A stretch of 64,000 nucleotides of DNA from Escherichia coli. Its GTDB lineage: Bacteria; Pseudomonadota; Gammaproteobacteria; Enterobacterales; Enterobacteriaceae. This document shows, piece after piece, positions 18,151-64,000 of the stretch. Position 1 is the first letter of the stretch, and each line of letters begins with the position of its first letter. The notes under the pieces are model-generated. The model was not told the DNA's origin and made no database searches. It saw only the letters and a list, made by a program, of their open reading frames with translations. Location: the NCBI RefSeq assembly GCF_024223415.1, contig NZ_CP100500.1; one strand, written 5' to 3'. Made by a program: the position numbers and the translations under genes.

Positions 18151-18251
18151 AACTTATACAGAGTTACACTTTCTTACATAACGCCTGCTAAATTATGAGT
18201 ATTTTCTAAACCGCCCCAATAATTTGCAGTCATTTTGAAAAGGAAGTCATT

Positions 18252-44557: not shown

Positions 44558-44806
44558 ATGCGTATTGAAATCTGTATCGCTAAAGAAAAATTCAGCAAAA
44601 TGCCAAAAGGCTCTGTACCTGCTCTACAACAGGAAATGTCTCGCCGTATCAGAAAACAATACGACGATGTGGAGGTTATAGTAAAATCCGCCAGTAATGA
44701 CGGACTGACCATTTTAAGAGCCGTAGATAAAGAAAACGCTCAGAAGTTCATACAGGAAACGCTGCAGGAAGTCTGGGAAACTGCTGATGACTGGTTTTTT
44801 CACTAA
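44558..44806 (+). CDS. DinI-family DNA-damage-inducible protein (prophage-encoded)
   Basis: 82-aa [22 protein letters not shown]...[16 protein letters not shown], resembling DinI incl. C-terminal acidic WExADDWF motif; good SD (AGAGGG). Confidence 0.8.
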
Positions 44807-45189: not shown

Positions 45190-45645
45190 TTATTCAACAC
45201 CTGAATCCCCCGCAGCTTCTCTCCCCTTTATAAAACGCCCCTTCCGGAATCCAGACCGCTGCAGTGCACGACGAAGATGACCGTATACCGTCTTGTCATT
45301 CTGCCCCGTCTCTTCTGTAATCTCCGCAATACTTAAACCTCTGTAATACCGGTTCAGTACCGCTCTGCGCTCTTCCAGCGTCAACACACCTCCGGCCGCT
45401 CTCAGATTCAGCATCGACTTATTCAGAATACAGCAGGCCTCTCCGGTAAAAAGAATACGAACAATATCTGTATACTCATCATCACAGAATACAAAATAAT
45501 ATCTGAATGACCTGCCTGACTGCACCCTTCTTCTGTCTGATATGGCATCTTCTATATATCTGATTCGACTGCTTACGGTTCCAAATATCTCTCGCAGGGC
45601 TTTTTCAAAATAAATATCTCTCGTCGCCAGGATTATATCCAGCAT
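45190..45645 (-). CDS. LuxR/GerE-type HTH transcriptional regulator (prophage accessory)
   Basis: 151-aa ORF; C-terminal LTLEERRAVLNRYYRGLSIAEITEETGQNDKTVYGHLRRALQR fits the GerE/LuxR HTH pattern; Arg codons almost all AGA/AGG/CGA and frequent ATA Ile. Confidence 0.6.
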   Translation of the reverse strand: MLDIILATRDIYFEKALREIFGTVSSRIRYIEDAISDRRRVQSGRSFRYYFVFCDDEYTDIVRILFTGEACCILNKSMLNLRAAGGVLTLEERRAVLNRYYRGLSIAEITEETGQNDKTVYGHLRRALQRSGFRKGRFIKGREAAGDSGVE

Positions 45646-45661
45646 CTCTGTACCTCATTAT

Positions 45662-45682
45662 ATCCCGGGGGACTCCCCCGGG
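45662..45682. other. GC-rich hairpin between eib-like gene and regulator
   Basis: TCCCGGGGG-ACT-CCCCCGGGA, 9-bp perfect stem, no U-tract. Confidence 0.5.
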
Positions 45683-45705
45683 ACAGATATCTAAATCCTG
45701 ACCTG

Positions 45706-46833: not shown

Positions 46834-47181
46834 TCTGTTATTCTCCTGTATTATTACTTCACCAGCCAGAACGGTAGTGCGGAGCAAAAATACAGTGATA
46901 AGAATCCTCTTTTATTAATTTAATAATATCAGGAATATTATTGTGTATAATATGCGCCCTCAATTTAAGCAGCAGAAAAGCAATGACGCGAAAATCATTA
47001 AAATACATAAAGATAAAACATCATAACTATAATTATAATAAGCGCGCTTATTTTAGCATCTGAACATTTAAAGTACTGCTATCACAAAACAATAAAAATC
47101 CTGGGTAATATCTCTGATGATTGAATGAGAAATTCACGATGTCTGGTGAGAATTCTGTTCAAAACGAGGAATGCAGACGTA

Positions 47182-47496: not shown

Positions 47497-48072
47497 TCAC
47501 CATCCAACCCTGTACGCCAGAATGGTTTCACTGTCACTCAGTTCTGCTATTGCCTTTTTCATCTCCCTTTGCCTTATATGTATTTCAAGGCCTTTCCTGA
47601 ACATCGCTTTACCAGCAGCATCACTCAGGGATATCAGTTCATCTGCCGTCATCGGTACATCATTATTCTCTGCGTCCGTCCAGAAAAATCCTTCCGGCAA
47701 CACTCCGCCTCTGGCCGCTGATGCCGACATTCCAAGACGTGTCATGGCTTCCTTTCCATAATCCCATTTCCGTCCTCTGTGCTCAAAAACATACCCTGAC
47801 GCCTCCATCGCATCACGCCAGGCATTTATCTCCGCGTTTTTCATCCTGCGTGCTTCTTCCACAGCCATATCATCATTTGCCCGGTACTCACCTACCGGCC
47901 CTGCATCACCTCTTATGCAGGCTTCAAATATTTCACGACCGTAAGACTCAGGATCATCCGCACTTGCTGTAAATACACATTCTGTTTCCGCGTCTGAAAA
48001 CTTCACTATACAGTTTATGGTCGTATGACCCCTGTCAGCCCACACTGGTGACGTGATTTTATCGACCTTCAT
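47497..48072 (-). CDS. hypothetical phage protein at the tail-fibre-assembly (tfa) position
   Basis: 191-aa ORF immediately downstream of the stf-like gene with SD GGGGAGAAA; does not resemble lambda Tfa as far as I can recall; assignment is positional. Confidence 0.4.
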   Translation of the reverse strand: MKVDKITSPVWADRGHTTINCIVKFSDAETECVFTASADDPESYGREIFEACIRGDAGPVGEYRANDDMAVEEARRMKNAEINAWRDAMEASGYVFEHRGRKWDYGKEAMTRLGMSASAARGGVLPEGFFWTDAENNDVPMTADELISLSDAAGKAMFRKGLEIHIRQREMKKAIAELSDSETILAYRVGW

Positions 48073-48086: not shown

Positions 48087-49892
48087 TCACCGTATTCTCT
48101 GAAACAGGCCCCAAATCGTCCCAATGATATTATTCACTGTCATGTTAGTTGTGCATAACATCCATGTACCAAGCATAGGATTGCCAAATAAAAAGCGGAT
48201 ATCTGTAAGTTTATCCGATGACGACGACACAATAACGGCCTGTCTGATACGATACCCGGGTATTTCACGGGTATTTGTTACCTCATGATTTCGTTCTATG
48301 ATCCCCAGAACATAAGACCCCACGGAATAAACACTTCCGACGCTCGCTGGCTGCCCCGGCTGTCCCTGTGGTCCTGCCGGGCCGCGTTCACCTGTATACC
48401 CTCTTGGCCCCTGAGGACCTGCCGGGCCGCGTTCACCTGTATCCCCCTTTAGTCCCTGTGGACCTGCCGGACCGCGTTCACCTGTATCGCCCTTTGGTCC
48501 CTGTGGACCACGCTCCCCCTGGGCTCCCAGCTCTTTCCATTCAGACCAGGGGCCATTACCGGTAAAATTACCAGTAACAGTTCTTACGAACTTTCGTGGT
48601 GGGTTCCAGGTTGTATATTCATGCTGGCAATATCCCCATGCACCAACTCTTACCTGAAGATAACCCGCTCTCTGAATCGGATAATTATTTTCTCGTGTAG
48701 CCCCACTGTCTGATGGCTGATAATAATCACCCTGATCGGTCACTCGTCCCAGTCGGTTCAGATCACCATTCAGCAGTTGTCCACGGGCTGACTCTCCTCT
48801 TGGTCCCTGAGGACCTGCCGGACCGCGTGCTCCTGTTTCACCTTTTGCTCCCTGTGGACCTGTCGGACCGCGTTCACCTGTTTCACCTTTTGGTCCCTGT
48901 GGTCCTGCCGGGCCGCGTTCACCTGTTTCACCCTTTGCTCCCTGTGGACCTTCCGGGCCACGTTCACCTGTATCCCCCTTTGGTCCCTGAGGACCTGCCG
49001 GGCCACGTTCACCTGTATCGCCCTTTGATCCCTGTGGACCTGCCGGGCCGCGTTCACCTGTATCCCCCTTTGGTCCCTGTGGACCTCCCGGATCTCCTTT
49101 ATCCCCCTTAGGGCCTTTTTCTCCTCGCTCACCCTTTTCTCCCTTCAGACCCTGAGGGCCTTCCGGACCACGTGCACCTGTTTCGCCCTTTGCTCCCTGT
49201 GGACCTGCCGGGCCGCGTTCACCTGTTTCGCCCTTTGCTCCCTGTGGACCTGCCGGGCCGCGTGCACCTGTTTCACCCTTTGGTCCCTGTGGACCTGCCG
49301 GGCCGCGTTCACCTGTATCGCCCTTTAGTCCCTGTGGACCTGCCGGACCGCGTTCACCTGTTTCACCTTTTGGTCCCTGTGGTCCTGCCGGGCCACGTGC
49401 TCCTGTTTCACCTTTTGGCCCCTGTGGCCCGGTAATGCCTCTTTCACCACGAGCGCCGGTATCCCCTTTCTCTCCTCGTGGTCCCCGGGCAGATGCTGCT
49501 CGTTTCCGGGCTTCCTCCGCCTCAGATGCCGCGGACTCTGCTCTGTGCAGTATGGACTGCACCACAGCCTCCAGCTCTGACAACGCCTTCGGATAATAAG
49601 GAGCATCTTCCAGCTCCATCAGAAATTTATTCAGTGTTCCCGGTGAAGAATCCTCCCTGACCACGATATCTCCCACATACGAAGGACGGTAACCTTCTGT
49701 ATTGAGTGTCACCCTGTATATTCCTGGCTCCACATCCATACTGTAACTCCCCGTCTCTTCCGGCATGCCATAAGCCACTGTCGTGGCGATGACTGTCTCG
49801 CTGGTTCTCTTCGCTTTCAGCTCAATAATGCATCCCGGTACCGGTTTTCCGGTTCCGTCCCTCAGCACGCCTGAAATTTTTACAGCCGCCAT
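48087..49892 (-). CDS. stf: side tail fibre protein (Stf-like) with collagen-like G-X-Y repeats
   Basis: 601-aa ORF; N-terminus [18 protein letters not shown]... resembles lambda Stf N-domain; two long blocks of GPxGxKGxTGxRG repeats; distinct C-terminal domain. Confidence 0.8.
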
Positions 49893-49964: not shown

Positions 49965-50210
49965 TTACTTCACGCACGAAACTTTCGTAAACATATCTTC
50001 ACTCACCCACTGACCATAAAATCTCGGAGCTGATACTTTATACACAGTGCCGCTTTTCGTTTCTATTTTCCCTGTAAGATCTACCGTATAAGCTCGCTGT
50101 AAAACCCCGGGACTCAGCACACCGGTGCACCGGACTCTCTCCGTAACGGAACGGTACCCCGCGCAACCTGATACAAGAAACAGCAAAAAAGTGCAGACGA
50201 TTATTTTCAT
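49965..50210 (-). CDS. small lipoprotein, Cor-like candidate
   Basis: 81-aa ORF with signal peptide and lipobox LVSGC; sits at the lom/cor position; no homology recalled. Confidence 0.5.
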   Translation of the reverse strand: MKIIVCTFLLFLVSGCAGYRSVTERVRCTGVLSPGVLQRAYTVDLTGKIETKSGTVYKVSAPRFYGQWVSEDMFTKVSCVK

Positions 50211-50231: not shown

Positions 50232-50894
50232 TCAGTACGCATCATAAATTTCTGCATTTATGTAATAACAGAGGTTATTAACAACACCTGAATTATCATT
50301 GGGCGCCGCTACGTTATCTTCAGCAAAAGTTGACTGACGCCATAACTGTGAGTTTCTGGCATTAAAACTGGCGGTATACCAGTAATAACTCTCCCCTTCC
50401 TGAACTGTCGTCCACTGGGTACACCCCGGCATTACGGCCACATCATGTCCCACACTGATCGGTACATCCTTTTCCCATATTCGCGTCATTTTTACTTCCA
50501 GTGGCAGCATTTCCGTGTTCCAGACCACCCTGCCATGACTGTCGCACAACTGTATTCCCCATTGCGGCCATACATTCACCATGTTGGCAAAAACATAAAC
50601 AACATATGTGCTGTCCTGTTCCATGCCCGGCTCCTGCCCTGTACCAGCGCTGAAAATGTCATACTGCCAGGTACCGTTAAGCTGAACCATTTCACCATGG
50701 AAGGACTGATTACCGCTTATCTGTTTAATAAAAATCACGCAACGATAATTCGTCGGCACCCCAGTGTCGATAAACTGCATCACCGCATCACGCGCACTCA
50801 GTGTGAAATGAAAACGGCGCACAAGGTTCAGTGGCGGCGCAACAGGTGATATCCATTCTCTCCCCCGCTCATCAGTTAATTTAAGTGCAAACAT
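50232..50894 (-). CDS. hypothetical tail-associated protein
   Basis: 220-aa ORF; start ATG overlaps stop of upstream 86-aa ORF (ATGA). Confidence 0.55.
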   Translation of the reverse strand: MFALKLTDERGREWISPVAPPLNLVRRFHFTLSARDAVMQFIDTGVPTNYRCVIFIKQISGNQSFHGEMVQLNGTWQYDIFSAGTGQEPGMEQDSTYVVYVFANMVNVWPQWGIQLCDSHGRVVWNTEMLPLEVKMTRIWEKDVPISVGHDVAVMPGCTQWTTVQEGESYYWYTASFNARNSQLWRQSTFAEDNVAAPNDNSGVVNNLCYYINAEIYDAY

Positions 50895-51154
50895 CAGATC
50901 CCCCTTATCATGACCAGCACGGGTCTTAACCAGCTTGTGTTGGCATAGTGCACTGTCCAGCCGGATACACTGGCACTGGTATGACTTCCCTGACCGTTAA
51001 TCAGAATGGCCGGTGAACAGACTTCCAGACGCCAGCCCTGCAAAGGAGTATAAGAACGCTGCCCCGTCCCTTCAGTGATCACATCCAGCACCCCTGTTGG
51101 GTTTATTTCATGTGTCACAAGGCGCCCTTTGCGCCATACCCGGACTCCGAACAT
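50894..51154 (-). CDS. hypothetical small protein coupled to J
   Basis: 86-aa ORF; start overlaps J stop (TAATG). Confidence 0.5.
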   Translation of the reverse strand: MFGVRVWRKGRLVTHEINPTGVLDVITEGTGQRSYTPLQGWRLEVCSPAILINGQGSHTSASVSGWTVHYANTSWLRPVLVMIRGI

Positions 51155-54100
51155 TACAGTCTCCCCAGTCGTACTCTTAACACATTGTTATCGTCATATA
51201 CGTCGATTCGCTCGCCATTGAAAAACAGGCGGCCTGCGCCGGGCCTTCCTGAGTTAATTTCAAGGCTGCCGTTTCTTGATAAACGCCACCCCGGACTACC
51301 GGAATGAAAATTATCTGACCGGATATCTCCCGTCACTCTGGCAAAATCCACGGTCAGTTTTTTCATGAAAACATCATTCATGAACAGCTGATCACCCTGA
51401 GCCACAAACAAAGGTGTTGTATTGCCATTTTCCGGGTTAATCATCGCAATACGATCTGCCTGCATCAGGATCTGACTCTGAATTCCGTCAGACGTATTTT
51501 CGATTCCGGCACCAATACCTGCAATATAGAGACGTCCATCCCGTGTCTGCTGCAGCTTCACAGCCCACATGCTGTTCAGGTTCCGGCGCGTGTCCTCCTG
51601 AACTTTCTGTATCTGCTCAATGCTGGCATTCCAGGATCCCAGTTTTTTATCCGTGCTCTGTGTGATCTGACTTCCCTTATCATCAACATACTGTCTGATC
51701 TGCGCTATCTGTCGGCTGTTCTCCTCCGTGCTCCTGCTTACTGTCTGCCGGATTTCGCTTCCCATCCTGTCAACTTTTCTGTCAACTTCCGCAATGGCCA
51801 TTGACTGTTCAGCGCTCTTTTTCGCCACAACAGTACTTATTTGCGCACTTTTATCATCAACATACTGCCTGACCTGCGCTATCTGTCGGCTGTTCTCCTC
51901 CGTGCTCCTGCTCACTGTCTGCCGGATTTCACTGCTCACGCTGTCAACTTTCCTGTCGACTTTCGCAATGGCCAGCGACTGTTCACCGCTCTTTTTCGCC
52001 ACCAGTTCCGTTATGCTGTTTTCAGACGCCGTGATTTTTTTCGTCACCTCTGCGATATCACGCTCCGCACGCTGCCTCACATCTTTCTCCAGCTGCGTCA
52101 TTTCGCGGTTAATCGCATTCTCCAGTTGCTCAACTTCAGTGCGCCGTGCAGAGGCATCAATGCGTTCATTGATCTCCCGTCCCAGATGCGTTTTATTTAT
52201 CGCCCCCCTGAAAAAATTAAGGTAACCGGCAGGATCATTACTCGCCCGACCGACTGCCTCCACGAATGCCGATTTACCGACAGTGTTAACACTGCGGATA
52301 TAAAAGTAATAATCATGGCCAGGTTTAATATTCTGGCCGGAGACAAGCCACTGACTTCCGGTACCAAGATAACGGGCTGTGGTTTCAACCTGCCTGATAT
52401 CGGTAATCCGCGTTTCCGAGAACCAGAACTCAAACTGTACCGTCGGATCGTAAACCGCAAGATGCGGCGTGGCGGTTATCTGAAAATAGCCCGGCGTCAG
52501 CTCAATCCGCGACGGCGCTGCCGGTGCGGCAATCCGGAACGATACCGACGCCGGGTCTCCCTGCTGCCCCCGGGCATTTACTGCCCGGACTGTCAGCCTG
52601 TAGTTCCCCGGCGCCAGCTGCCTGAAGCGGTATGTGGTTTCCGTCGTCCGGGCCGTGCTGACCAGCCGCTCACTGCCATCATCCGCGGCCACGGTCAGGC
52701 GAAGCAGGAAGCTCACGCCCTTCACCACCTTCGGCGTGTCCCAGCGCGCCAGCACCTGATATTCCCCGCTGTCTGCGGTGACTTCTGCGGTCAGGTGCTG
52801 CACCGCTGGCGGCGTGACACCATTCACCGTTCCGCTCTGGTCGCCGTCAAAGTGCGCCCCGTTATCCACGATGGCCTCTTTTTCCGGTACATGCTGCACG
52901 GCAGTGATGGCATACGTGCCGTCGTCGTTCTCACGGATACTCACGCAGCGGAACAGGCGCTGGCGCAGCGTCGGCAGCTTCAGCCCCCACACGCTGTACT
53001 CGGCAACGCCGTCAGGAACCCGGCTCACTTTTACCTTCACGCCGTCGGTGACGGACTGAACCTCCACGCTGACCGGATTGCCACTTCCGTCAACCAGACT
53101 TATCAGCGTGGTACCGGAGGATGGCAGCGTGATTTCACGGTCGAGCGTCAGCGTCCGGGTCTGGCTGTTCACCGCCAGCACACGACCACCGGTGCTGATA
53201 CCGGCATAGTCATCATCACAGATTTCAATGACATCGCCCGGTACATGGCGAAGCCCTTCAGCACCCACGCTGAAATCCACGGTCTGCGTCTCCAGCAGTT
53301 CTGTTTTAATCAGCCACAGCCCGGCGCGGTGTGCCTGCCCCCGGCTGGTACAGCCAAAGGCATCCATCTTCGTGACGTTACGACCGTAACGGGCAATGGC
53401 CTGCGTGTCCTCCACAAGCTCTGTCGCCGTCTCCTGGCCGTTATCCGGGTCACTCCAGTTCACCTCAACGGCATTATGGCGGTCCTTCAGGGCGCTGAAG
53501 CTGTAGCGGAACGGCGCGCCATCATCCGGCATCACCACATTACTGCGGTTATAGGTCCACACCTTATCCGACGGTCGGTCCTGCACGAACGTCAGCGTCT
53601 GCCCGTTCCATACCGGCATACAGCGCATCGCCGAGCAGAAATCACTGAGCACATCCCACGCCTTACGCTGCCTGGTCAGCCAGGCATTACAGGTGATGCG
53701 CGGCTCCGTGCCACCAGAGCCGTCCGGCACCGACTGGTCGCAGTACTGGCCGATGACATACAGCGCCCATTTGTCCACATCCGCTGCGCCAACACGTTTC
53801 CCCATGCCGTAGCGCGGGTGGGTCAGCATATCCCACAGACACCAGGCCGGGTTATCGCTGTATGCCGGTTTAAACGTTCCGTCCCAGATACCGCTGTATT
53901 GCCGCGTCTGCGGGTTATAGTTCGACGGCACCTGCAGAATGCGCCCGCGAAGATGATAATTACGGCTCACCTGCTGGCTGCCGAACTGCTCCGAATCCAC
54001 CTGCACACCGACCAGTGCCGTGTTCGGGTAGCACTGTTTCACATCGATGATTTCGGTGTATGACGACCAGAGCGTTTTGTTCTGCAGCTGGTCTGTGGTG

Positions 54101-54663
54101 CTGTCCGGCGTCATCCTGCGCATCCGGATACTGAACGGGCGCGGCGGCAGGTTACCCACCACCACCGGGGCCAGATACTGCGAGGTGGTTTTGCCCTTAA
54201 TGGTGATGTCTTTTTCCGTTAACCAGCGACCGTTACGCTGTATCTGAACCAGCAGGCGGACTTCCGACGGATTCCGGTCCCCCTTTGAGGTGGTTTCCAC
54301 CAGTGCCTGCACACCGAAGGTCAGGCGCAGACGGTCGATGTTTGCCGACGTGATGGTCCGGGTAATCGGCGTGTCGTACTTCACTTCCGTACCCAGCACC
54401 GTCTCGGAGCCGGAGGATTCAAATCCCTCCGGCGGCGTCTGCTCCTGCTCACCGGCCCGGAATACCACCGTGACGCCGGATATATTGGTATTCCCCTCAC
54501 TGTCCAGCACCGGCGTACCGTTCAGCAGCACGCTTTTTAATCCATCCACCGGTCCTTGTATCGGCCCTTCGCTGATGACATCGATCACACTCAGCAACTG
54601 CGTGGACTTCAGGTTGTCCTTCGCTTCGCGCGGGGTATGCCCCTTACTGCTGCCTTTACCCAT
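51154..54663 (-). CDS. J: tail tip / host specificity protein J (central fibre), variant C-terminus
   Basis: 1169-aa ORF; N-terminal ~900 aa match lambda gpJ as I recall it ([24 protein letters not shown]...); C-terminal ~270 aa differ and include two 58-aa tandem repeats. Confidence 0.92.
51678..52025. repeat. 174-bp tandem duplication inside J
   Basis: Two adjacent ~174-bp copies (starting 51678 and 51852), ~90% identical, encoding [20 protein letters not shown]... Confidence 0.8.
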
Positions 54664-54679
54664 TCCTCACACTCCATAA

Positions 54680-54706
54680 ACAACAAAGCCGCCCAAAAGG
54701 CGGCTC
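54680..54706 (-). terminator. intrinsic terminator-like hairpin downstream of moron lipoprotein gene
   Basis: Minus strand: AGCCGCC-ttttg-GGCGGCT followed by TTGTTGTTTAT, just upstream of the J ribosome binding site. Confidence 0.5.
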
Positions 54707-54729
54707 ATGAGTTACGGCAGGATTAACTA

Positions 54730-55068
54730 TTATTTACATGCATTAACACTATCAGCAAAAATTTTTGGCGTTAATGCTGGTACGCGTTCATAAAGAGTAA
54801 AACTACTGCCATTTCCTGCTTTTTTGATATCAAGCACAACATCATACCCACCCATAGCCTGTGGAACTAAAAGGCTTACCCCATTCTCAATAGGAATGGA
54901 TGTTATAGGTGTTCCATTACCAGCCCATTGTCTGGATATGCAGCCTGACAATTCATCAATATTTTTTAATGAATTACCTTCCATTACAGGCTTGCCGGAT
55001 TTTACGTAATCCAAAGATTTACATCCTGTTAAGGCAATAATCGTGCAGAATAAAATCGTTTTGTTCAT
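54730..55068 (-). CDS. AT-rich moron lipoprotein inserted between tail genes I and J
   Basis: 112-aa product from MNKTILFCTIIALTGC (lipobox LTGC); markedly AT-rich versus flanking genes; own promoter-like AT-rich upstream region and downstream hairpin. Confidence 0.65.
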   Translation of the reverse strand: MNKTILFCTIIALTGCKSLDYVKSGKPVMEGNSLKNIDELSGCISRQWAGNGTPITSIPIENGVSLLVPQAMGGYDVVLDIKKAGNGSSFTLYERVPALTPKIFADSVNACK

Positions 55069-55140
55069 ATAGCTAACCAACAGAATAATTATCAGTGTTC
55101 GATATAAATATTAAATCAGTTAGAACATGAGTAAATAATA

Positions 55141-55782
55141 TTACCGCCCAATTACCACAACCTGACCACCATCCCCTTCATCTGCCGTGCTAATCTCCTG
55201 AGATGCCACACGTGACCCCACGCGCATTTCACCGTACAGAACAGGCAGGACATTGCCCTGGGCAACCATGTTATCCAATGAGGAAAAATAGGTATTTTGC
55301 TTACCGTTATCAGTGGCTGACACTTTAGGCGTTTTGGCTTTCGGTGCCAGCATCTGCGCAACACCGCCTAAAACCATACCTGCCCCAAGAGAGAACATGA
55401 GATTACTTGCAACAATACTAAGCCCCGGCATCCAGATTGCCGTAGCAATTAGCGCCGCACCCAGCACTGCCTGAAAAATACCGCCACTTTTGGCACCCGC
55501 CAGACGCGGTACGATGTGGATCACGGCACCATTTGCCAGCGGCTCATTAAGACGGGCAGATAATTCGTTTTCGCCTGCATCACGCCCGGCAATGCGCACC
55601 TGATACCAGCCGTCATTCAGTTTCTGACGAAACGCCGGGAGCTGTGTGGCCAGTGCCCGGATGGCTTCAGCCCCCGTTTTCACACGAAGGTCGATGCGGC
55701 GGCCAAATCGTTGCAAATCCCCGTAAAGGCAGATGCGTGCCATGCCCGGTGACGCCTGAGGGAGTGTGTGCGTCGCTGCCAT
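55141..55782 (-). CDS. I: tail assembly protein I
   Basis: 213-aa ORF similar to lambda gpI; follows K with overlap. Confidence 0.88.
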   Translation of the reverse strand: MAATHTLPQASPGMARICLYGDLQRFGRRIDLRVKTGAEAIRALATQLPAFRQKLNDGWYQVRIAGRDAGENELSARLNEPLANGAVIHIVPRLAGAKSGGIFQAVLGAALIATAIWMPGLSIVASNLMFSLGAGMVLGGVAQMLAPKAKTPKVSATDNGKQNTYFSSLDNMVAQGNVLPVLYGEMRVGSRVASQEISTADEGDGGQVVVIGR

Positions 55783-56423
55783 TTGTCGGTGTACCTCTCT
55801 CGTTTGCTAAGTTGTTCAGGAATATGGTGCAGCAGCCCGCCGTCGCCGCAGTAAATGGCGGCATGATTCGGCACCGATGAACCAAAACAGCACAGCAGCA
55901 CGTCGCCGGGCTGCGCCTCTGTCAGTGCGACACGGTAAAAACCAGTCGCCTCCATATTGTCAAGATAGAGATTCTGACCGTTACGCCACCAGTCATCCCC
56001 GCGATGAAAATCCGGCATCTCAATTCCCGCCAGATGGTAAGCATCCCGGAACAGCGTGTAACAGTCCGTCACCCCGTGCTCAAAGCACCGCCCGGTGAGA
56101 TGCGGCACACAGCGGAACTTGTGAATCGCCCCCCGGCAGACCAGCCACCACGGCAAATCACTCTGCACCTGCAGCCGCCGGTCGGCCTCACTCAGCCAGG
56201 GCAGACCACCGGGGTGACTGTGGACCAGTGCCACAATCTCACCCTGCATTTCTGCCTGCAGCCAGTCCTCCGGCGACATCCGGAAATACGCCTCCGGCTC
56301 ACCGGAGATATTCACGCAGGGGAAATATCTTTCCCCCTCCGGCGCTCTCACCACGAAGCCGCACGACTCCGCTGGCGCACATCGCCGGGCGTGCGCCAGA
56401 ATCGCTGATTCTGTCTCTGTCAT
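55680..56423 (-). CDS. K: tail assembly protein K (NlpC/P60 + JAB-like)
   Basis: Product from MTETESAILAHARRCAPAESCGFV..., matching lambda gpK as recalled; the ORF track extends upstream. Confidence 0.88.
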   Translation of the reverse strand: MTETESAILAHARRCAPAESCGFVVRAPEGERYFPCVNISGEPEAYFRMSPEDWLQAEMQGEIVALVHSHPGGLPWLSEADRRLQVQSDLPWWLVCRGAIHKFRCVPHLTGRCFEHGVTDCYTLFRDAYHLAGIEMPDFHRGDDWWRNGQNLYLDNMEATGFYRVALTEAQPGDVLLCCFGSSVPNHAAIYCGDGGLLHHIPEQLSKRERYTDKWQRRTHSLRRHRAWHASAFTGICNDLAAASTFV

Positions 56424-56427
56424 GGAA

Positions 56428-57126
56428 TTACTGCGAAAGTTTGTGAATGGAAAGAAAACCGCCAAAGTTGCCGACGTTATTGCGAAACTTACAGCCGCTC
56501 AGGCATTTGCTGCATTTATCCTTCGTGATATCGGACGTCGGCTGATCATATTCATCCGCGACCGCCGGACCGCTATAACCGCACTCATCGCCGCGATAGG
56601 TCCAGGTGCAGGTGTTGGCCAGCATGATACGTCCCGGAAAAACAGCGCCGTCCGTTTCCGTCGGCGTGGCCAGTACAAAGGTCGCGCTGACCGCTGTCAA
56701 ATCACTGCACTGCTCGATGCGCCAGCGGCTGATAACCTCCTGCTCCGGATCGGCGTCACTGTTTCCGTTGACGAAGTTCACCGCATCCAGAAAACGGGCA
56801 TAAACTTTACGCCGGACCACCGTTCCGCCGACCAGACTCTGCATATCTTCCACCATACCGGTGACCATACCGTACAGGTTAGAAACCGTCAGCGTGGGGC
56901 GCGTACTGGTGCCTTTGCCATTCAGTTCAAAACCACTCCCCTGAATGGGATACGGCTGATACTGTCGCCCCTGCCAGGTGACCGGCTCACCTTTTTCGTT
57001 CTGCTCATTACAGAAAAAATAACGTTCTCCACCGACCTCTGTCAGATCGATTTCCCAGAGCACCACGCTGGCCGACTGCTCCGCACGGGTGCATTCATTC
57101 AGTGTTTCCTGCCGGATATCCTGCAT
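56428..57126 (-). CDS. L: minor tail protein L
   Basis: 232-aa ORF MQDIRQETLNECTRAEQSASVVLWEIDL..., lambda gpL length and sequence as recalled. Confidence 0.92.
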   Translation of the reverse strand: MQDIRQETLNECTRAEQSASVVLWEIDLTEVGGERYFFCNEQNEKGEPVTWQGRQYQPYPIQGSGFELNGKGTSTRPTLTVSNLYGMVTGMVEDMQSLVGGTVVRRKVYARFLDAVNFVNGNSDADPEQEVISRWRIEQCSDLTAVSATFVLATPTETDGAVFPGRIMLANTCTWTYRGDECGYSGPAVADEYDQPTSDITKDKCSKCLSGCKFRNNVGNFGGFLSIHKLSQ

Positions 57127-57455
57127 CAGTTCACCACCTGTTCAAACTCTGCGCTGAACTCAACACGCAGCATACTGACCCGCGACGACCATTTTGCGCA
57201 GGTCACCTTTATCTGCCGCCACTCATAAGGCGGCGTCCACAGAAAGGATTTCCAGCCCCCGTGCTCTTCCAGAAACGACTCCAGTACCGTGGCCTCCTCA
57301 CGGGGGACAGAAAGCGTCACGCTGTACGTTTTCAGGTTGGCATTCAGCCCGGCAGGCGCTCGCTGGGAATAGCCATCACCAAAGCGCACCTTTCTTACAG
57401 AAGGGACCGAAGCCACATCCATACCGGGTTTCACTTTCCAGCGGAAGGTTTTCAT
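57126..57455 (-). CDS. M: minor tail protein M
   Basis: 109-aa ORF, lambda gpM length; overlaps L start. Confidence 0.9.
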   Translation of the reverse strand: MKTFRWKVKPGMDVASVPSVRKVRFGDGYSQRAPAGLNANLKTYSVTLSVPREEATVLESFLEEHGGWKSFLWTPPYEWRQIKVTCAKWSSRVSMLRVEFSAEFEQVVN

Positions 57456-60013
57456 CGTCCACCTCCGGAGAACAGACCACCATCACGCATCTGTGTCTGA
57501 ATTTCATCACGGGCACCCTTGCGGGCCATGTCATACACCGCCTTCAGCATCTGTGGACCTGGCAGACCATTCGTACCGTCGTTCTGAATCACCACGTTGT
57601 TGTTCTGCTCAAACCTGATACCCTCTGAACGCCGCATTTGTGCCGGACTTCCGGTGCCACCGACATAACCACCAGTGGCATAGCCGCGCATCAGCCGGTA
57701 GAGATTTCCCACGCCAATCCGGCTGGTTGCCTCCTTCGTGAAGACAAACTCACCACGGTGAACAATCCCCGCTGGCTCATATTTGCCGCCGGTTCCCGTA
57801 AATCCCCCGGTCGCAAAATGGAATTTTGCCGCAGCAGCCTGAATGGCTGTACCGCCTGACACTGATGCGCCACCACCGGCAGCACCGCCAATGACGCTGC
57901 CGATACTCCCGACAATCCCCACCATTGCCTGCTTAAGCAGAATTTCTGTCATCATGGACAGCACGGAACGGGTGAAGCTGCGCCAGTTCTGCTCACTGCC
58001 GGTCAGCATCGCCGCCATATTCTGTGCAATTCCATCAAAGGTCTGCGTGGCTGCACTTTTTACCTGCGACATACTGTCCGTGGCGCTCTCTTCCCACTCA
58101 CTCCAGCCGGACTTCAGGCCTGCCATCCAGTTCCCGCGAAGCTGGTCTTCAGCCGCCCAGGTCTTTTTCTGCTCTGACATGACGTTATTCAGCGCCAGCG
58201 GATTATCGCCATACTGTTCCTTCAGGCGCTGTTCCGTGGCTTCCCGTTCTGTCTGCCGGTCAGTCAGCCCCCGGCTTTTCGCATCAATGGCGGCCCGTTT
58301 TGCCCGTTGCTGCTGTGCGAATTTATCCGCCTGCTGCGCCAGCGCGTTCAGGCGCTCCTGATACGTAACCTTGTCGCCAAGTGCAGCCAGCTGGCGTTTG
58401 TACTCCAGCGTCTCATCTTTATGCGCCAGCAGGGATTTCTCCTGTGCAGACAGCTGGCGACGTTGCGCCGCCTCCTCCAGTACCGCGAACTGACTCTCCG
58501 CCTTCCACAAATCCCGGCGCTGCTGGCTGATTTTCTCATTTGCTCCGGCATGCTTCTCCAGCGTCCGGAGTTCTGCCTGAAGCGTCAGCAGGGCGGCATG
58601 AGCACTGTCTTCCTGACGATCGCCCGCAGACACCTTCACGCCGGACTGTTTCGGCTTTTTCAGCGTCGCTTCATAATCCTTTTTCGCCGCCGCCATCAGC
58701 GTGTTGTAATCTGCCTGCAGGATTTTTCCGTCTTTCAGTGCCTTGTTCAGTTCTTCCTGACGGGCGGTATATTTCTCCAGCGGTGTCTGCAGGCGTTCGT
58801 AAGCCTTCTGCGCCTCTTCGGTATATTTCAGCCGTGACGCTTCGGTATCGCTCTGCTGCTGCGCATTTTTGTCCTGTTGACTCTGCTGCTCAGCCTTCTT
58901 TCGGGCGGCTTCAAGCGCAAGACGGGCCTTTTCACGATCATCCCAGTAACGCGCCCGCGCTTCATCGTTAACAAAATAATCATCCTTGCGCAGATTCCAG
59001 ATATCGTCCGCTTTCTTAAACGCGGCCTCTGCCTTAATCAGCATCTCCTGCGCGGTATCAGGACGACCAGTATCCAGCACCGCATCCCACATGGATTTGA
59101 ATGCCCGTGCTGTCCTGTCTGCCCAGGTTTCCAGCGTGCCCATGTTCTCTTTCAGGCGGCGGGTCTGGTCATCAAACCCTTTCGTTGCGGCCTCGTTCGC
59201 CGCCTGCAATGCCCCTGCCTCATCGCCGGAACGCTGCAACTGAGCAACATACGCAATCTGCTCCGCCGTCACGTTATGGAACTGGCGCGCCATCGCCGTC
59301 AGCCCCGACGTCGGGTCTGTGGTCAGCTTCCCGAAGGCTTCAGCGACCTTGTCCACCTCCACGCCGGATGCAGAGGAGAAACGCGCCACACTCTGGCTGA
59401 TGGACGCAATCTGAGCCTCACCGCTTACCCCCGCCTTAACCAGTGCGCTGAGTGACTCGCTGGTCTGGTTAAACGTCAGCCCTGCCGCCTGCCCGGCTCT
59501 GGACAGGACCAGCATACGATCTGCCGTCAGTCCCGCCTGATTGCCGGAAAGGACCAGCGTTTTGTTGAAATCGGACAGGGTTGAGTTGCCCTGATACCAG
59601 GCATACGCCAGCGCACCGGTCGCCACCGCCAGCGAGGTGGCCCCGACCATCGGCAGGGTGATCGCACCGGCAAGCCCCCTGAACATGGGGATCATCCCGC
59701 CGAAGGAGTCCTTCACCTGACCACCCTGTTGCAGCAGGATCAGCCACGGACTCTGCCCGCCTGCAAGCTGTGTGGCCACGTCGGTGAACTGTGCAGGCAG
59801 CATACGCATGGCGGCTTTATACTGTCCGACGGAAATCCCCGCTTTCTGTGCAGCCAGCGCCTGCCGGTTCATTGACTGTTCAACGACTGCCGCTGTTTTT
59901 TTCGCATCACTTTCCGTACCGGAAAAATGACGCCTGACTCTGGCCATCTGCTCGTCAAACCTGGCCGCATCCAGACTTAAATCAACGACCAGATCGCCTA
60001 CCGGTTCAGCCAT
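57452..60013 (-). CDS. H: tail tape measure protein H
   Basis: 853-aa ORF, same length as lambda gpH; matches recalled sequence over most of its length. Confidence 0.93.
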   Translation of the reverse strand: MAEPVGDLVVDLSLDAARFDEQMARVRRHFSGTESDAKKTAAVVEQSMNRQALAAQKAGISVGQYKAAMRMLPAQFTDVATQLAGGQSPWLILLQQGGQVKDSFGGMIPMFRGLAGAITLPMVGATSLAVATGALAYAWYQGNSTLSDFNKTLVLSGNQAGLTADRMLVLSRAGQAAGLTFNQTSESLSALVKAGVSGEAQIASISQSVARFSSASGVEVDKVAEAFGKLTTDPTSGLTAMARQFHNVTAEQIAYVAQLQRSGDEAGALQAANEAATKGFDDQTRRLKENMGTLETWADRTARAFKSMWDAVLDTGRPDTAQEMLIKAEAAFKKADDIWNLRKDDYFVNDEARARYWDDREKARLALEAARKKAEQQSQQDKNAQQQSDTEASRLKYTEEAQKAYERLQTPLEKYTARQEELNKALKDGKILQADYNTLMAAAKKDYEATLKKPKQSGVKVSAGDRQEDSAHAALLTLQAELRTLEKHAGANEKISQQRRDLWKAESQFAVLEEAAQRRQLSAQEKSLLAHKDETLEYKRQLAALGDKVTYQERLNALAQQADKFAQQQRAKRAAIDAKSRGLTDRQTEREATEQRLKEQYGDNPLALNNVMSEQKKTWAAEDQLRGNWMAGLKSGWSEWEESATDSMSQVKSAATQTFDGIAQNMAAMLTGSEQNWRSFTRSVLSMMTEILLKQAMVGIVGSIGSVIGGAAGGGASVSGGTAIQAAAAKFHFATGGFTGTGGKYEPAGIVHRGEFVFTKEATSRIGVGNLYRLMRGYATGGYVGGTGSPAQMRRSEGIRFEQNNNVVIQNDGTNGLPGPQMLKAVYDMARKGARDEIQTQMRDGGLFSGGGR

Positions 60014-60440
60014 ACCGGACTCCTCCTGCGATCCCTTCTGATACTGTCATCAGCATTACGTCATCCTCCGTCATGTCCGCCACATCCGGGGATGCAGGGA
60101 TAACTTCATTCCCGTCCGGGCCAAAGCGGACGCCTCCGGCAAGCCCTGCCGCTTTCTGCATCAGCACATCATCTTCAGGCTCTTCGTCAGCCTCGCGCCG
60201 GTTCAGCAGACTGAAATCCAGCGGATGCATATCCGGATCGCTGAAAAACAGGCTGAGCACGGTGTACGTCAGCCCGGAAAAGTGCATATCCAGCAGAACA
60301 TCATGAAAATAATGGGTACTGTAAAAGCGGTGCCAGTCGGCATACTCCGTGGATGACATCCCGGCAAGCATGGCGCGCCAGTCGGGTCGCCCCATCTCAC
60401 GCGCCAGTTTCAGGGCAAAACTCAGCTCACCGTCGAACAC
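60006..60440 (-). CDS. T: tail assembly chaperone T segment (expressed as G-T fusion by -1 frameshift)
   Basis: 144-aa ORF MFDGELSFALKLAREMGRPDWRAMLAG..., lambda gpT-like; overlaps 3' end of G in the -1 frame. Confidence 0.88.
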   Translation of the reverse strand: MFDGELSFALKLAREMGRPDWRAMLAGMSSTEYADWHRFYSTHYFHDVLLDMHFSGLTYTVLSLFFSDPDMHPLDFSLLNRREADEEPEDDVLMQKAAGLAGGVRFGPDGNEVIPASPDVADMTEDDVMLMTVSEGIAGGVRYG

Positions 60441-60844
60441 TTTCCCGCAGAAACAGGCTCTGCAGGCCCGGCGTCATCTGCCTGTTCAGGGGCATTATTC
60501 ACAACAAACTCAGACATTCCGGACAGACGTAACACCACGTTTTCAGCCTGAGCAATTGCCTCCGTGGGCCAGGTGGTAAGCACTTCCTGCTCAATCTGCG
60601 TAATGGCTTCATTCATGGGCAGCAGCTTTGTCTTCTGCGGATGGTTATGCCACAGAGACATCGCCACCAGAAACGCCCCGCCTCTGATAAGATCCTCTAC
60701 AGACACCTGCAGGTTGCCACTGGATTCAGCCTTTTTTTCCTGCTCTTTCAACCAGGCAAGATGCTCAATACGCTGCAGGGCTGACAGTTCAGAAAGCGTG
60801 ACGGTCACGCCGTTATGTTCAAATGATTCGTTTTTCAGGAACAT
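60422..60844 (-). CDS. G: tail assembly chaperone G
   Basis: 140-aa ORF, lambda gpG length. Confidence 0.9.
   Translation of the reverse strand: MFLKNESFEHNGVTVTLSELSALQRIEHLAWLKEQEKKAESSGNLQVSVEDLIRGGAFLVAMSLWHNHPQKTKLLPMNEAITQIEQEVLTTWPTEAIAQAENVVLRLSGMSEFVVNNAPEQADDAGPAEPVSAGKCSTVS
60440..60446 (-). other. G-T programmed -1 ribosomal frameshift slippery site
   Basis: GGGAAAG heptamer on the minus strand, a few codons before the G stop, as in lambda. Confidence 0.8.
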
Positions 60845-60859
60845 CGCTGACTCTCCGGA

Positions 60860-61600
60860 TTAACTGGCGGTGACGTTGATTTCTGCAACCGCAGCAAGTT
60901 CACCATTACCGGATACGACCGGAATGTTGACCCTGCCTGCAGCAACGCCCTTCACGGTGATGGTCATACCACTGACCGACACGGTGGCTTTTGTTTTATC
61001 CGCAGACACCGCACGGAAGCTCTTGTCGGTTGCGCCTTCCGGCTGGAATGCCACGGTCAGCGTGGTGCTCTGCCCTTTCACCACCGAGGTGCTGGCAGGC
61101 GTCACGGTCATGCCGGTTGCCGCTGTTAGCGTGCTGCGATCTTCTGCCATCGACGGACGTCCCACGTTGGTGACTTTCACCGTGCGGGTGATCACTTCCT
61201 TCGCTGTCACCGCCTTACCGATGCTGCTGACCCAGCCGCGGAACACATCGACCGTGCCGTTCGGGAAGCGGATTTTATAGGCACGGGTATCACCTTCATT
61301 AAACCACGCCAGCAGCGCCTGCTGCCCCTGCTCTCCGGGCATCCACGCCAGCGTGAAGCTGGTATCTCCGGCGGATTTCTGCCCCTGTCCGGTCGCGGCC
61401 CAGTCCGAATCTTCATCATCGAGATAGCTGTCGTCATAGAAATCTGCGGTCAGTTCGCCGGGCGTCAGGTCTTTAACTTTAGCCAGACGCGACCAGTCAT
61501 TGTCTGAAAGCGGGTTCGCATAAGGGTCACCGTTCCCCTTATAAACCCACAGTGTGGTCCCGGCCCCTTTCACCGGTGCCAGAGGATTTGGTGTTGGCAT
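60860..61600 (-). CDS. V: major tail protein V
   Basis: 246-aa product from [22 protein letters not shown]...; C-terminal Ig-like domain; the ORF track extends 10 codons upstream. Confidence 0.93.
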
Positions 61601-61607
61601 ATCGTCC

Positions 61608-62003
61608 TCACATTTCATAGGTAATGACATAAGTCAGATCGGCTGAACTCCACAGGCCCGCATCATCGTCGCGCCGGTAGTCATAGCCACTGGCCACCAT
61701 ACTGGTGATCAAATCTGACAGTGCCGGGATATCGCTCATCACCGGATAAATCCGGGACTCCATCCACGAATCCAGCTCTGAATCCGGCACCTGAGCAGGC
61801 AGGAAAACTTCAATATGCAGCTCCGCCTGCCAGGTATCGCTGTCCAGCTCTTCGCCCGTGTATTCAGCGCCGGTGAGATAAACGGCAACTGCCGGAAAAT
61901 CCGCCTCATCAAAAACAGCGGGGCGACCATCAAAAAACGTCGCCCCGGTGTCATGCTTCTCCAGTGCATCCAGTACGGCTGTACGGATATCAGTATTTTT
62001 CAT
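61608..62003 (-). CDS. U: tail terminator protein U
   Basis: 131-aa ORF, lambda gpU length. Confidence 0.92.
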
Positions 62004-62575
62004 CGCTTTATCACAATCCTCAGTTGTTGTTTCAGCGCATAGCTCAGTTCTTTTGGCAGACGTTCGCGTCGGATACGGTTAACGTTCTCATCAAAAGCCT
62101 GTTTCAGTGGGGCCGACATCGGAATTTTCACCACCTGAATGGGAAGACGATTACGCTTTTTCCTTCCCTTATCGTCATTGCCCTTCGCATACCTGGCTTC
62201 TGGCAGACGTTGCATAACATGCCAGCGCCCATTATTCAGTCGCTGGATGAATGCCCGCTGATAACGATGCTGACCGGCTTTGAGTATGCTGTTCGGGCGA
62301 CGTCCCAGCATCCTGATCCCCAGCTTAATCACAGGAAGATCGCCGCGGTTAACGATAATTTTTGCGTTCGGATTTCTGACCGTAGCCCGTTTCAGTCTGG
62401 ATCGCTCTTTAACAAGTTTTCTCGGCACCCGGGTTTCACGGGCGACCTGAGACGAAGACTGATTAATCGCCGTTGTGGCCACGCGGTTAATGGCCATTGC
62501 GGCGGCACCAGGCACCGCCGTTCTGCTGATACGGCTGAGGTTTTCAACGGCCTGCTCAAGACCCTGTATGGCCAT
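62000..62575 (-). CDS. Z: tail completion protein Z
   Basis: 191-aa ORF MAIQGLEQAVENLSRISRTAVPGAAAMAINRV..., lambda gpZ-like. Confidence 0.9.
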   Translation of the reverse strand: MAIQGLEQAVENLSRISRTAVPGAAAMAINRVATTAINQSSSQVARETRVPRKLVKERSRLKRATVRNPNAKIIVNRGDLPVIKLGIRMLGRRPNSILKAGQHRYQRAFIQRLNNGRWHVMQRLPEARYAKGNDDKGRKKRNRLPIQVVKIPMSAPLKQAFDENVNRIRRERLPKELSYALKQQLRIVIKR

Positions 62576-62586
62576 ACATCCCCCTT

Positions 62587-62949
62587 TCAGCGGCGACGAT
62601 TAACGGCAGGCGGTACGCCCCGCCCAAGCCAGAGATGACAGCTTCCGCCATCATCCGGCGAAACCCGGTCTATCCAGAAGTTTTCCTCACCGATGGTCAG
62701 CGTGTCTCCACGCCGCAGTTGCCGCACATCATCAGTCCGGACAAACAGGGACGGGCTGGAGCCTTCAACGCGCACGCCCTGTCCGGCATAGCTGATATTT
62801 TCAGGGTCATCAAAAACACCACGTATTACTGCGCCGGGCTGCTCACCGGATGTAATGGTGGCTGACGTTCCCATATGCCCGCGTATCGTTTCATCAGCCC
62901 GGGCAATGGCTGTATCAAAACCGTTATCCCTGATATTAATAACTTTCAT
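62587..62949 (-). CDS. FII: head-tail connector protein FII
   Basis: C-terminal ~100 aa match lambda gpFII as recalled (...AIARADETIRGHMGTSATITSGEQ...); N-terminus differs; the ORF track extends upstream. Confidence 0.85.
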   Translation of the reverse strand: MKVINIRDNGFDTAIARADETIRGHMGTSATITSGEQPGAVIRGVFDDPENISYAGQGVRVEGSSPSLFVRTDDVRQLRRGDTLTIGEENFWIDRVSPDDGGSCHLWLGRGVPPAVNRRR

Positions 62950-63298
62950 CTGTAACAAGCCCCTCCAGGACAAGTTCCGCAACATTCACTGGATCAACTC
63001 TGACAGTCATACCTGTAACAACAATCTCCATATCACTGTCATCATGCGGATGTTTTCCCGCCACATGCAGGGTTTTGAGTACACGAACAGTGCTCATTTC
63101 ATCCCCGCCAGTGGAGTGGCTATACGTCATCAAATGCCTTTCGTTCTCATCACTCTCCTGGTTTTTGTCCTCTGCTTCCTCTTCCCATTCCGCCACCCGC
63201 TGCGCTATCTCTGCGGCACTCCCGGATATATCCGGCTCACGCCCCAGAATCAGGGCCAGTTCATCAAGCCGTTTCAGATTTTGCTCTTTCGTTGCCAT
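62936..63298 (-). CDS. FI: DNA packaging / head assembly protein FI-like
   Basis: ~120-aa product from MATKEQNLKRLDELA... at the lambda FI position; sequence diverged from lambda FI. Confidence 0.7.
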   Translation of the reverse strand: MATKEQNLKRLDELALILGREPDISGSAAEIAQRVAEWEEEAEDKNQESDENERHLMTYSHSTGGDEMSTVRVLKTLHVAGKHPHDDSDMEIVVTGMTVRVDPVNVAELVLEGLVTDESY

Positions 63299-63349
63299 AT
63301 CAGCCCCCTGTGAAAAAAGACACGGGGGCATTTCGCCCCCGCTCACGGA

Positions 63350-64000
63350 TTATTTCACCTGTACCACCACAAACTCATCCGGGTCCGGCAACACCATCAG
63401 CGGCGCGGACTGCGTCATGGTAAATTCACGGGCGGGATCCCCCACCGTCAGCCAGTGTTTCGGATAACGGGAAGAGGCCACCACTCCTTCAGACAACGCC
63501 TGTGCATCCTGAATGGCACCGTAACAACGGATCCCATCTGCAGCAGTATTCCCCAGGACCAGCGTGCCGTCTGGCAGATAACGTTTTTCGGTACCGTCCT
63601 CTGCCACATAAGACGTTTTCGCCACCACAATGGCCAGATCACCGTAATACCCTTTGAAAGACACCACCGCCCCCAGGTCTTTCACTGCCGTTTCGAGTTG
63701 CGAATTTGAACCGCGACGGGTATCCAGTTTTTCGCGGAACAGCTTAAAACCATTCAGCAGACGCCAGACGGTACCGTCCATAATGGCAATATTCACAAGG
63801 CCGCTGGCCTGGTCGCAGTAGAGGTCAATATCATGCGCAGGATCGAACGTGTCACGATCGTGCTCAGACCATTTTTTACCACTGGCCTGCGTAATGTTAT
63901 TCTTCGTCGACCTGCCAAAATCGACCTCAATTTTCTCGAACTGGTCTCCTTCCATGGTGTATTTGCCATACAGCACGGCATTTACCGCCTGCATTTCTTC
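63350..64000 (-). CDS. E: major capsid protein E (C-terminal part; gene continues beyond window end)
   Basis: 214-aa partial ORF ...AVNAVLYGKYTMEGDQFEKIEVDFGRST...PDEFVVVQVK at the lambda E position. Confidence 0.9.
   Translation of the reverse strand, partial: EEMQAVNAVLYGKYTMEGDQFEKIEVDFGRSTKNNITQASGKKWSEHDRDTFDPAHDIDLYCDQASGLVNIAIMDGTVWRLLNGFKLFREKLDTRRGSNSQLETAVKDLGAVVSFKGYYGDLAIVVAKTSYVAEDGTEKRYLPDGTLVLGNTAADGIRCYGAIQDAQALSEGVVASSRYPKHWLTVGDPAREFTMTQSAPLMVLPDPDEFVVVQVK

Follow-up and report, generated by a model that had tools for sequence, protein, structure and literature searches.

A lambda-type tail block and a putative alternative host-recognition cassette joined inside gene J of a lambdoid prophage in Escherichia coli yecE

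Where does the lambda-type tail module of a lambdoid prophage end, and what do the genes beyond its edge amount to? This question is raised by a 64,000-nucleotide (nt) stretch of Escherichia coli DNA (NCBI RefSeq assembly GCF_024223415.1, contig NZ_CP100500.1; called the window throughout), part of which is very probably the late-operon (tail) end of a lambdoid prophage sitting in yecE with its genes on the minus strand. A first-pass annotation, made from the letters of the sequence, had considered 55140-63350, which corresponds to the prophage genes I to FI. It described a mosaic in which a lambda-type tail module is joined to unrelated distal genes, and named FI/FII and I/J as candidate recombination joints. 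Here, we compared the region with lambda and with its nearest relatives among phages, prophages and complete genomes. The right-hand edge of the lambda-type module was found inside J, the I/J boundary carries an insertion, and the region as a whole can with high confidence be read as a patchwork generated by recombination among co-circulating lambdoid phages and prophages. Coordinates are those of the window, and features between 45190 and 64000 lie on the minus strand unless marked otherwise.

The lambda genome (J02459) was used as reference for blastn and for a global alignment scored in 100-column windows. Three blocks were obtained with blastn: 55145-62143 corresponds to lambda 15440-8412 (93.5% over 7042 nt), 62319-62928 to lambda 8233-7624 (88.0% over 610 nt), and 52181-54694, which holds J codons 1 to ~828, to lambda 17987-15474 (93.4% over 2515 nt). 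From FII to I (55145-62928) nucleotide identity to lambda 7624-15440 amounts to 93.5%, and megablast against lambda-type phages gave 94.3% over 55148-62928. The first-pass annotation had leaned on protein likeness and had asked for this nucleotide comparison; at 93.5% over 7042 nt, the likeness is not of family level only. The open reading frame (ORF) map and pairwise alignments gave the gene order FII-Z-U-V-G/T-H-M-L-K-I-J with lambda-like product sizes, i.e. the order and lengths of the lambda tail module (J02459 nt 7612-18903). The lengths quoted in the first pass for H (853 amino acids, aa), M (109), L (232), U (131), G (140) and V (246) were all correct, at identities of 81 to 100%.

Lambda-level identity of 93-94% begins at FII codon ~12 and extends as far as J codon ~828. 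The FII-to-I block is not uniform, its identity to lambda ranging from 41 to 100% per 100-nt window. In the global alignment, E is ~60% and FI ~40% identical to lambda, identity jumps to 93-98% where FII begins, and values of 87-100% are found across U, V, T, H, M, L and K. Short patches fall below 80%; divergent alleles were located in Z (62030-62485; 45-73%, lambda 8067-8524), in G (60631-60730; 78%), at the H C-terminus (57531-57730; 69-82%) and in mid-I (55362-55631; 41-71%). After I, a 417-bp segment has no lambda counterpart. Identity of 88-99% is reached again from the J start and continues to lambda nt ~17,990, beyond which nothing is alignable except for a weak island of 58-73%.

The position of the right-hand joint follows from the architecture of J. 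Codons 1 to ~828 (52181..54663) encode the hub domains and two fibronectin type III/immunoglobulin (FNIII/Ig) domains and are lambda-type (93.4% nt identity to lambda 15474-17987); the Pfam domains and their positions are as in lambda J, and both proteins have the end of the second Ig/FNIII domain at residue 818. The distal part (51154..52180, about codons 829-1169) is non-lambda, with 46% aa identity to its best match in an isolated phage and 100% identity to the E. coli prophage TUM1886. Around the joint (~52172-52217), identity to lambda is high up to ~52200, decays over ~30 nt and is unalignable from ~52172. In gpJ, the hub domains are followed by two FNIII domains, then an alpha-helical shaft at residues 809-861, then a central straight fibre and a domain that binds the receptor (RBD) (PMC11101478). 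Since the joint falls at J codon ~828, the gpJ shaft spans 809-861 and the second Ig/FNIII domain ends at 818, the right edge of the module is the start of the J alpha-helical shaft, just after the second FNIII/Ig domain, and not the I/J boundary. The earlier statement that everything beyond I is different thus does not hold: J is lambda-like up to codon ~828 at 93.4%, the same level as the I-to-Z block.

These data bear directly on the model in which a lambda-type module, consisting of Z through I with the larger part of FII, has its limits precisely at FI/FII and I/J, and all distal genes are unrelated. The FI/FII joint was confirmed (see below), and 417 bp that are absent from lambda do interrupt the homology directly after the I stop codon. 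Yet lambda-level identity (93.4%, 2515 nt) resumes at a hairpin and the J start and runs on to J codon ~828, so that the interruption at I/J is an insertion rather than a module edge and the right-hand boundary of this model is refuted. In addition, other lambdoid (HK97-like) phages have homologues of the distal genes in syntenic positions. We therefore regard the model with exact FI/FII and I/J boundaries as unlikely, and place the right-hand edge within J.

Compared with lambda, J has had its distal third replaced, and PF12421, the Ig-like domain that binds LamB, is missing from it. This lambda-type RBD gave no match in J of the window, while it is found at residues 1001-1132 of lambda J and 1038-1160 of phage 21 J. 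PF09327 (central straight fibre) lies at J 1015-1140, compared with 845-972 in lambda, and J ends 29 residues after it. PDB sequence matches of J comprised the fibre part of lambda gpJ only, plus full-length J-like proteins of 1148-1172 aa. In the shaft, Tandem Repeats Finder detected a 174-bp (58-codon) tandem duplication (51677-52002; 1.9 copies, 90% match), which lengthens a predicted coiled-coil segment of J; the J protein of the related prophage F1022 has 1180 aa as against 1169 aa here. A phage-21-like distal J, suggested by a match reaching 51353, was considered and rejected: the identity is only 81% over 179 nt, and phage 21 J has the lambda-type RBD PF12421, which J of the window does not have. 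Phage 21 uses LamB, and its J shares ~94% identity with that of lambda (PMC11336670). On the plus strand, a 740-aa open frame runs antisense to J (51841-54063), and further long ORFs extend across the GC-rich tail genes; most likely, these plus-strand ORFs do not code for proteins and are shadows of the genes on the minus strand.

At the left-hand side, the 3' part of the major capsid gene (E homologue, 63350..64000) runs off the window. It is 64% identical to lambda E at the amino acid and ~60-70% at the nucleotide level, and reaches 92-95% nt identity to phage 21, D2 and the O55:H7 prophage CB9615 and 98-100% to the TUM1886 and F1022 prophages. FI (62936..63298; DNA-packaging protein, 120 aa; annotated as gpFI in the syntenic prophages) is a non-lambda allele, and the divergence noted in the first pass was borne out by an aa identity to lambda FI of 32%. 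The gene is a chimera, with a 5' half that phage 21, D2 and CB9615 share at 100% identity and a 3' half that matches the TUM1886/F1022 type only, which implies a further, putative joint in mid-FI around 63200. Phage 21 (OL657228) shares E and the FI 5' half at 92-100% identity and has lambda-like tail genes. FII (62587..62949; head-tail joining, 120 aa; NCBIfam NF049848 tail_join_FII, E-value 9e-20) is 96% identical to lambda and D2 at the nucleotide level, but just 77% to phage 21.

Residues 20-132 of the 132-aa FII ORF are 94.7% identical to lambda FII 5-117. The protein starts with MKVINIRDNGFDT, compared with (M)ADFDNLFDA in lambda, so that the N-terminal difference noticed before is real: the first ~12 residues differ, and identity is 94.7% in the other 113 that were aligned. 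We considered whether an upstream ATG had misled the ORF calling; this accounts for part of it, as the 132-aa ORF is really a 120-aa gene, but ~12 residues still differ. In the nucleotide alignment, lambda homology begins at 62928, at a distance of 8 nt downstream from the FI stop codon (62936-62938); this is ~20 nt into FII (start 62949, overlapping FI), i.e. within the first ~12 codons of FII (range ~62928-62940). This is effectively a gene-boundary joint, as had been proposed. Hence, of the two joints put forward earlier, FI/FII stands, with homology starting 8 nt past the FI stop, and I/J as a module edge does not, the edge lying inside J. The mosaicism itself was correctly recognised, but the joints were undercounted, as one more is found in mid-FI in addition to the patches in Z, G, H and I.

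The I/J interruption is a 417-bp AT-rich insertion (about 54720-55140; GC 0.37 versus 0.57-0.60 in the flanks) that is absent from lambda, phage 21, D2, TUM1886 and F1022. It contains a lipoprotein gene (54730..55068) encoding 112 aa with the signal sequence MNKTILFCTIIALTGC and the lipobox LTGC. The product matches phrog_914, an uncharacterised family (E-value 6e-33), and gave no Pfam or NCBIfam match; its homologues are enterobacterial proteins without names that share two further invariant cysteines. A 477-bp query across the insertion found a match in 336 of the 5426 complete E. coli genomes (~6%) and was 100% identical at the same I/J site in O55:H7 CB9615, where the insertion adjoins a lambda-length J and a lom-family gene. 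When the protein was searched by tblastn against 50,697 phage records, no match was obtained at an E-value of 1e-5 or below. A relaxed threshold yielded matches of 30-33% only (Fraca, LMessi), with the 33%-identical homologue of the HK97-like phage Fraca located between K and I. Judged from these searches, the family appears to be essentially confined to prophages. The AlphaFold model of the lipoprotein is a confident one, with a predicted local distance difference test (pLDDT) value of 85. Its best PDB match by fold was the Francisella lipoprotein Flpp3 (template modelling (TM) score ~0.5, E-value 0.013), and its best viral match an uncharacterised protein of Pseudomonas phage phiAH14a (E-value 2.5e-5; TM score 0.70 when normalised to the query, 0.84 when normalised to the target). 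No function could be derived from these PDB and viral fold matches, and any role assigned to the lipoprotein would be conjectural.

According to the definition of Juhala and Hendrix, a moron is an extra transcription unit inserted between conserved phage genes (PMC3594210). In placement and base composition the I/J insertion fits this definition, as far as its sequence can tell. Signals of a separate transcription unit were looked for as well. In a consensus promoter scan, no minus-strand promoter for the lipoprotein gene reached the threshold, and the candidate picked by eye agrees at 8 of 12 positions only (TTTACT, 16 nt, TAATAT). The terminator-like hairpin with T-run located 3' of the gene and just upstream of the J start (54676..54706; 9 pairs, 6 of them GC, in the scan) is also present in phages without the insertion. 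It aligns with lambda 15468-15497, being one of the elements kept from lambda, and is found in phage 21, where it is annotated as a terminator.

To assign nearest relatives, 200-nt segments were compared with six references: lambda, phage 21, D2 and the E. coli prophages TUM1886, F1022 and CB9615. TUM1886 (NZ_CP128970) and F1022 (NZ_OY754357) are prophages at the same chromosomal site. Their identity to the window is 98-100% in the head end, in FI and FII, in most tail genes, in distal J and the two ORFs (86 and 220 aa) that follow it, and in the fibre genes, and the FI/FII and intra-J joints are shared; they differ in having no I/J insertion, another allele of the I 3' half and other lengths of the fibre and YadA-like genes. 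Distal J and everything downstream are 100% identical to TUM1886/F1022 and absent from lambda, phage 21 and D2. In contrast, the I 3' half and the insertion are 99-100% identical to CB9615 (NC_013941, ~5.34 Mb), where they occupy the same I/J position, and absent or divergent in the other references. CB9615 continues with a lambda-length J (1132 aa) and then a lom-family gene, so its host-recognition end differs from the one in the window.

A four-way alignment delimited this switch of relatives. Between ~54640 and 55600, 0-1 mismatches per 100 nt were counted to CB9615 and 7-100 per 100 nt to F1022/TUM1886; within the I 3' half (about 55141-55600) the respective numbers are 0-1 and 7-50. In the flanks the relation is reversed, with 0-1 mismatches per 100 nt to F1022/TUM1886 and 2-7 to CB9615. 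The I 3' half and the insertion form a ~1-kb homologous-recombination patch with crossovers in conserved I and at the J start, and the four-way mismatch pattern rules out rate variation as an explanation of this patch.

The same comparison addresses the idea that no recombination took place and that the region diverged vertically from a lambdoid ancestor, with unequal rates between genes and similarity of family level. Some patches could be fast-evolving spots, namely those in G and at the H C-terminus, which are 81-82% or 69-82% identical to all references (~81% to all six in the case of the G patch). However, identity to lambda is bimodal with abrupt shifts (93-100% from FII to J codon 828, ~40% in FI, none distal to ~52180), falling from more than 93% to unalignable within tens of nucleotides. 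Adjoining segments have different nearest relatives at 99-100% in unrelated genomes, and the presence or absence of the 417-bp insertion cannot come from rate variation. Purely vertical descent is thus extremely improbable.

A different concern is that the ~1-kb CB9615-type patch was spliced into a TUM1886/F1022-type prophage during assembly, from the near-identical tail genes of two resident prophages. The number of matching tail regions per E. coli genome has a median of 3 and a maximum of 24, and the exact combination was found in none of the 5426 complete genomes. On the other hand, the reading frames are intact across both crossover zones, every other joint was found in independent complete genomes, and an exchange of such patches is what homologous recombination between lambdoid prophages should naturally bring about. 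We consider an assembly artefact very unlikely and retain natural recombination as the explanation. Two observations still count against the recombination history as reconstructed here: the insertion and this distal J allele occur together in 0 of the 5426 complete E. coli genomes (best coverage 89%), and the prophage continues past the window end, which cuts the E gene. The closest relative among complete genomes is 97.6% identical over 81% of a 20-kb query.

Beyond J, the order of genes is an 86-aa ORF (50894..51154), a 220-aa ORF (50232..50894) and a Cor-like lipoprotein ORF of 81 aa (49965..50210). The first two are translationally coupled, the 86-aa ORF starting with a 1-nt overlap on the J stop codon and the 220-aa ORF with a 1-nt overlap on the stop of the 86-aa ORF. 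Compared with lambda, lom is missing, and the two small ORFs and the cor-like gene stand in its place. The 86-aa protein has a weak phrog_557 match and the 220-aa protein matches phrog_425 (E-value 3e-27); neither gave anything in Pfam or NCBIfam, and the isolated-phage matches of the 220-aa protein are all below 30% aa identity. The Cor-like ORF begins with MKIIVCTFLLFLVSGC and has a lipoprotein signal peptide with the lipobox VSGC. Its residues 1-79 align with positions 1-74 of 78 of phrog_1119, 'Cor superinfection exclusion protein' (E-value 8e-7); no Pfam model matched. No coding sequence (CDS) is annotated at the equivalent position in the RefSeq records of TUM1886 and F1022. Small size (~75-80 aa in the known family) with a lipobox, sequence similarity and a place downstream of the J-distal genes are consistent with membership in the Cor family, and Cor of HK022, N15 and phi80 inactivates FhuA (PMC3594210).

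In small siphophages whose J is without a binding domain of its own, receptor-specificity loci are found directly downstream of gpJ together with cognate exclusion proteins, and families of such downstream proteins have been matched to FhuA, BtuB, LptD or YncD (Maffei et al., bioRxiv 10.1101/2021.03.08.434280; 10.64898/2026.04.02.716166). The window shows this arrangement, i.e. an RBD-less J with small genes directly downstream and a Cor-like exclusion candidate. The closest parallel is phage Fraca (LR597645), in which a J of the same RBD-less layout ends shortly past PF09327 and is followed by two small ORFs (~100 and 220 aa) and then cor; the full order of J, 100 aa, 224 aa and cor matches J, 86 aa, 220 aa and Cor-like here. 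The 220-aa protein is 25% identical to the 224-aa post-J protein of Fraca (E-value 5e-11). The relation is a distant one, with just 25-30% aa identity, and the cassette of the window is carried on a lambda-type and not on an HK97-type J hub. Because of the published siphophage arrangement, the synteny with Fraca and the Cor-type match, we infer that the distal genes form an alternative host-recognition cassette and not unrelated cargo. The term unrelated, which the first-pass annotation had applied to these genes, is in any case contradicted by the synteny with Fraca, hence by the existence of lambdoid relatives.

Several details make the host-recognition reading less secure. The profile score of the Cor-like ORF is modest (30 bits) and its identity to the Fraca cor product is 29% (E-value 3e-9), the likeness of the 86-aa protein to its 100-aa post-J counterpart in Fraca is not significant, and neither the 86- and 220-aa proteins nor their Fraca counterparts had a meaningful PDB sequence match. 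The 86-aa protein is named a candidate tip or receptor-recognition accessory protein, and the 220-aa protein a candidate receptor-binding or accessory protein.

With these comparisons, the history of the region can be proposed in four segments, whose boundaries and differing nearest relatives, like the domain content and the synteny, are direct observations. The head genes would form the first, with E and the FI 5' half of phage 21/D2 type and an FI 3' half seen only in TUM1886/F1022. The second would be a ~10.7-kb lambda-type tail block from FII codon ~8-12 to J codon ~828, interspersed with short divergent allele patches; the third, the ~1-kb patch of I 3' half and moron-like lipoprotein insertion, was probably imported from a CB9615-type prophage. 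The fourth would be a swapped host-recognition cassette beyond the break in the J alpha-helical shaft. In functional terms, the conserved lambda-type tail would build the tube and hub, and the swapped distal cassette would set the host range. For the 86- and 220-aa proteins we infer a receptor role, in that they would probably provide receptor binding, or help with it, at the tip of the RBD-less J; the Cor-like outer-membrane lipoprotein, if expressed in the lysogen, would probably block the same receptor against superinfection. A more far-reaching proposal combines an RBD-less J on a lambda-type tail, specificity conferred by the 86- and 220-aa proteins, to which isolated phages offer no close relative, and a divergent Cor-like protector; independently of this, the phrog_914 lipoprotein would be a new prophage-expressed envelope factor (acting, e.g., by receptor masking or entry block) that hops between lambda-type tails by homologous recombination regardless of the J type. 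We put this forward tentatively and regard it as rather doubtful.

The remaining tail genes conform to lambda, with the divergent patches of Z, G, H and I described above. Z (tail completion, 62000..62575) has 191 aa, compared with 192 in lambda, and 73% aa identity; its internal patch (62030-62485) is 45-73% identical to lambda at the nucleotide level, but 100% to F1022. U (tail terminator, 131 aa, 61608..62003) is 96.2% and V (major tail tube, 246 aa when counted from the ATG equivalent to that of lambda, 60860..61600) 93.9% identical to its lambda counterpart. In the G and G-T frameshift chaperone genes (60006..60844), G (140 aa) is 80.7% and the T frame (144 aa) 100% identical to lambda, and the -1 frameshift slippery site GGGAAAG is kept at 60440-60446, at nt 399 of 423 in G as in lambda. 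H (tape measure, 853 aa, 57452..60013) is 96.7%, M (tail tip, 109 aa, 57126..57455) 100% and L (tail tip, 232 aa, 56428..57126) 97.0% identical to lambda at the amino acid level. K (55680..56423), a C40 peptidase tail tip assembly protein with 247 aa when counted from the ATG, is 93% identical over lambda K 1-199, and its counterpart is annotated as a 744-nt C40 peptidase gene in syntenic prophages and phage 21. I (tail tip assembly, 55141..55782) has 213 aa, compared with 223 in lambda, and 82% aa identity.

Downstream of the Cor-like ORF lie the side tail fibre gene (Stf-like, 601 aa, 48087..49892; PF08400 phage_tail_N, E-value 3e-39; PF01391 Collagen, E-value 2e-48) and a gene for a tail fibre assembly or tip protein (191 aa, DUF4376, 47497..48072; PF14301, E-value 2e-20; phrog_1141, E-value 5e-62). 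The side tail fibre contains long collagen-like Gly-X-Y repeats, with Pfam Collagen matching in 6 stretches. It varies among the closest prophages, in which segments of 48200-48900 are just 90-95% identical or missing. The prophage end (45190-46887) encodes an adhesin of the YadA-like trimeric autotransporter type and a small sigma-70 region-4 helix-turn-helix protein, which are probably cargo or virulence-type genes. The adhesin has 393 aa here and 513-548 aa in related prophages, its length differing between strains. A DinI-like gene (44558-44806) lies just within the prophage side of the junction with the chromosome. This junction is at ~44300, where the truncated start of yecE (44200-44310, plus strand) directly follows yecD (43604-44203). 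The first ~44.3 kb of the window are E. coli chromosome (edd, zwf, pyk, aspS, yecD) with 98-99% identity to thousands of complete genomes; from the truncated yecE to the window end all DNA is prophage.

Lambdoid mosaicism, host-range swaps in distal J, the presence of morons in tail operons and exclusion genes of Cor type are established phenomena, and the prophage puts known module types together in a new way without being a new kind of system. It adds one more case of modular, recombination-driven evolution of lambdoid phages, a principle that is decades old. Within that frame the practical gain is modest: the module map is corrected, in that the host-range joint lies inside J at the alpha-helical shaft and not at I/J, and an RBD-less distal cassette of HK97 style is shown to be compatible with a lambda-type hub. 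A Cor-like ORF was identified where the two closest RefSeq prophages have no annotated CDS, and the phrog_914 lipoprotein family is flagged as matching ~6% of complete E. coli genomes, with the I/J site seen in the one context examined. These features may offer leads for the engineering of gpJ chimeras and for the study of superinfection exclusion.

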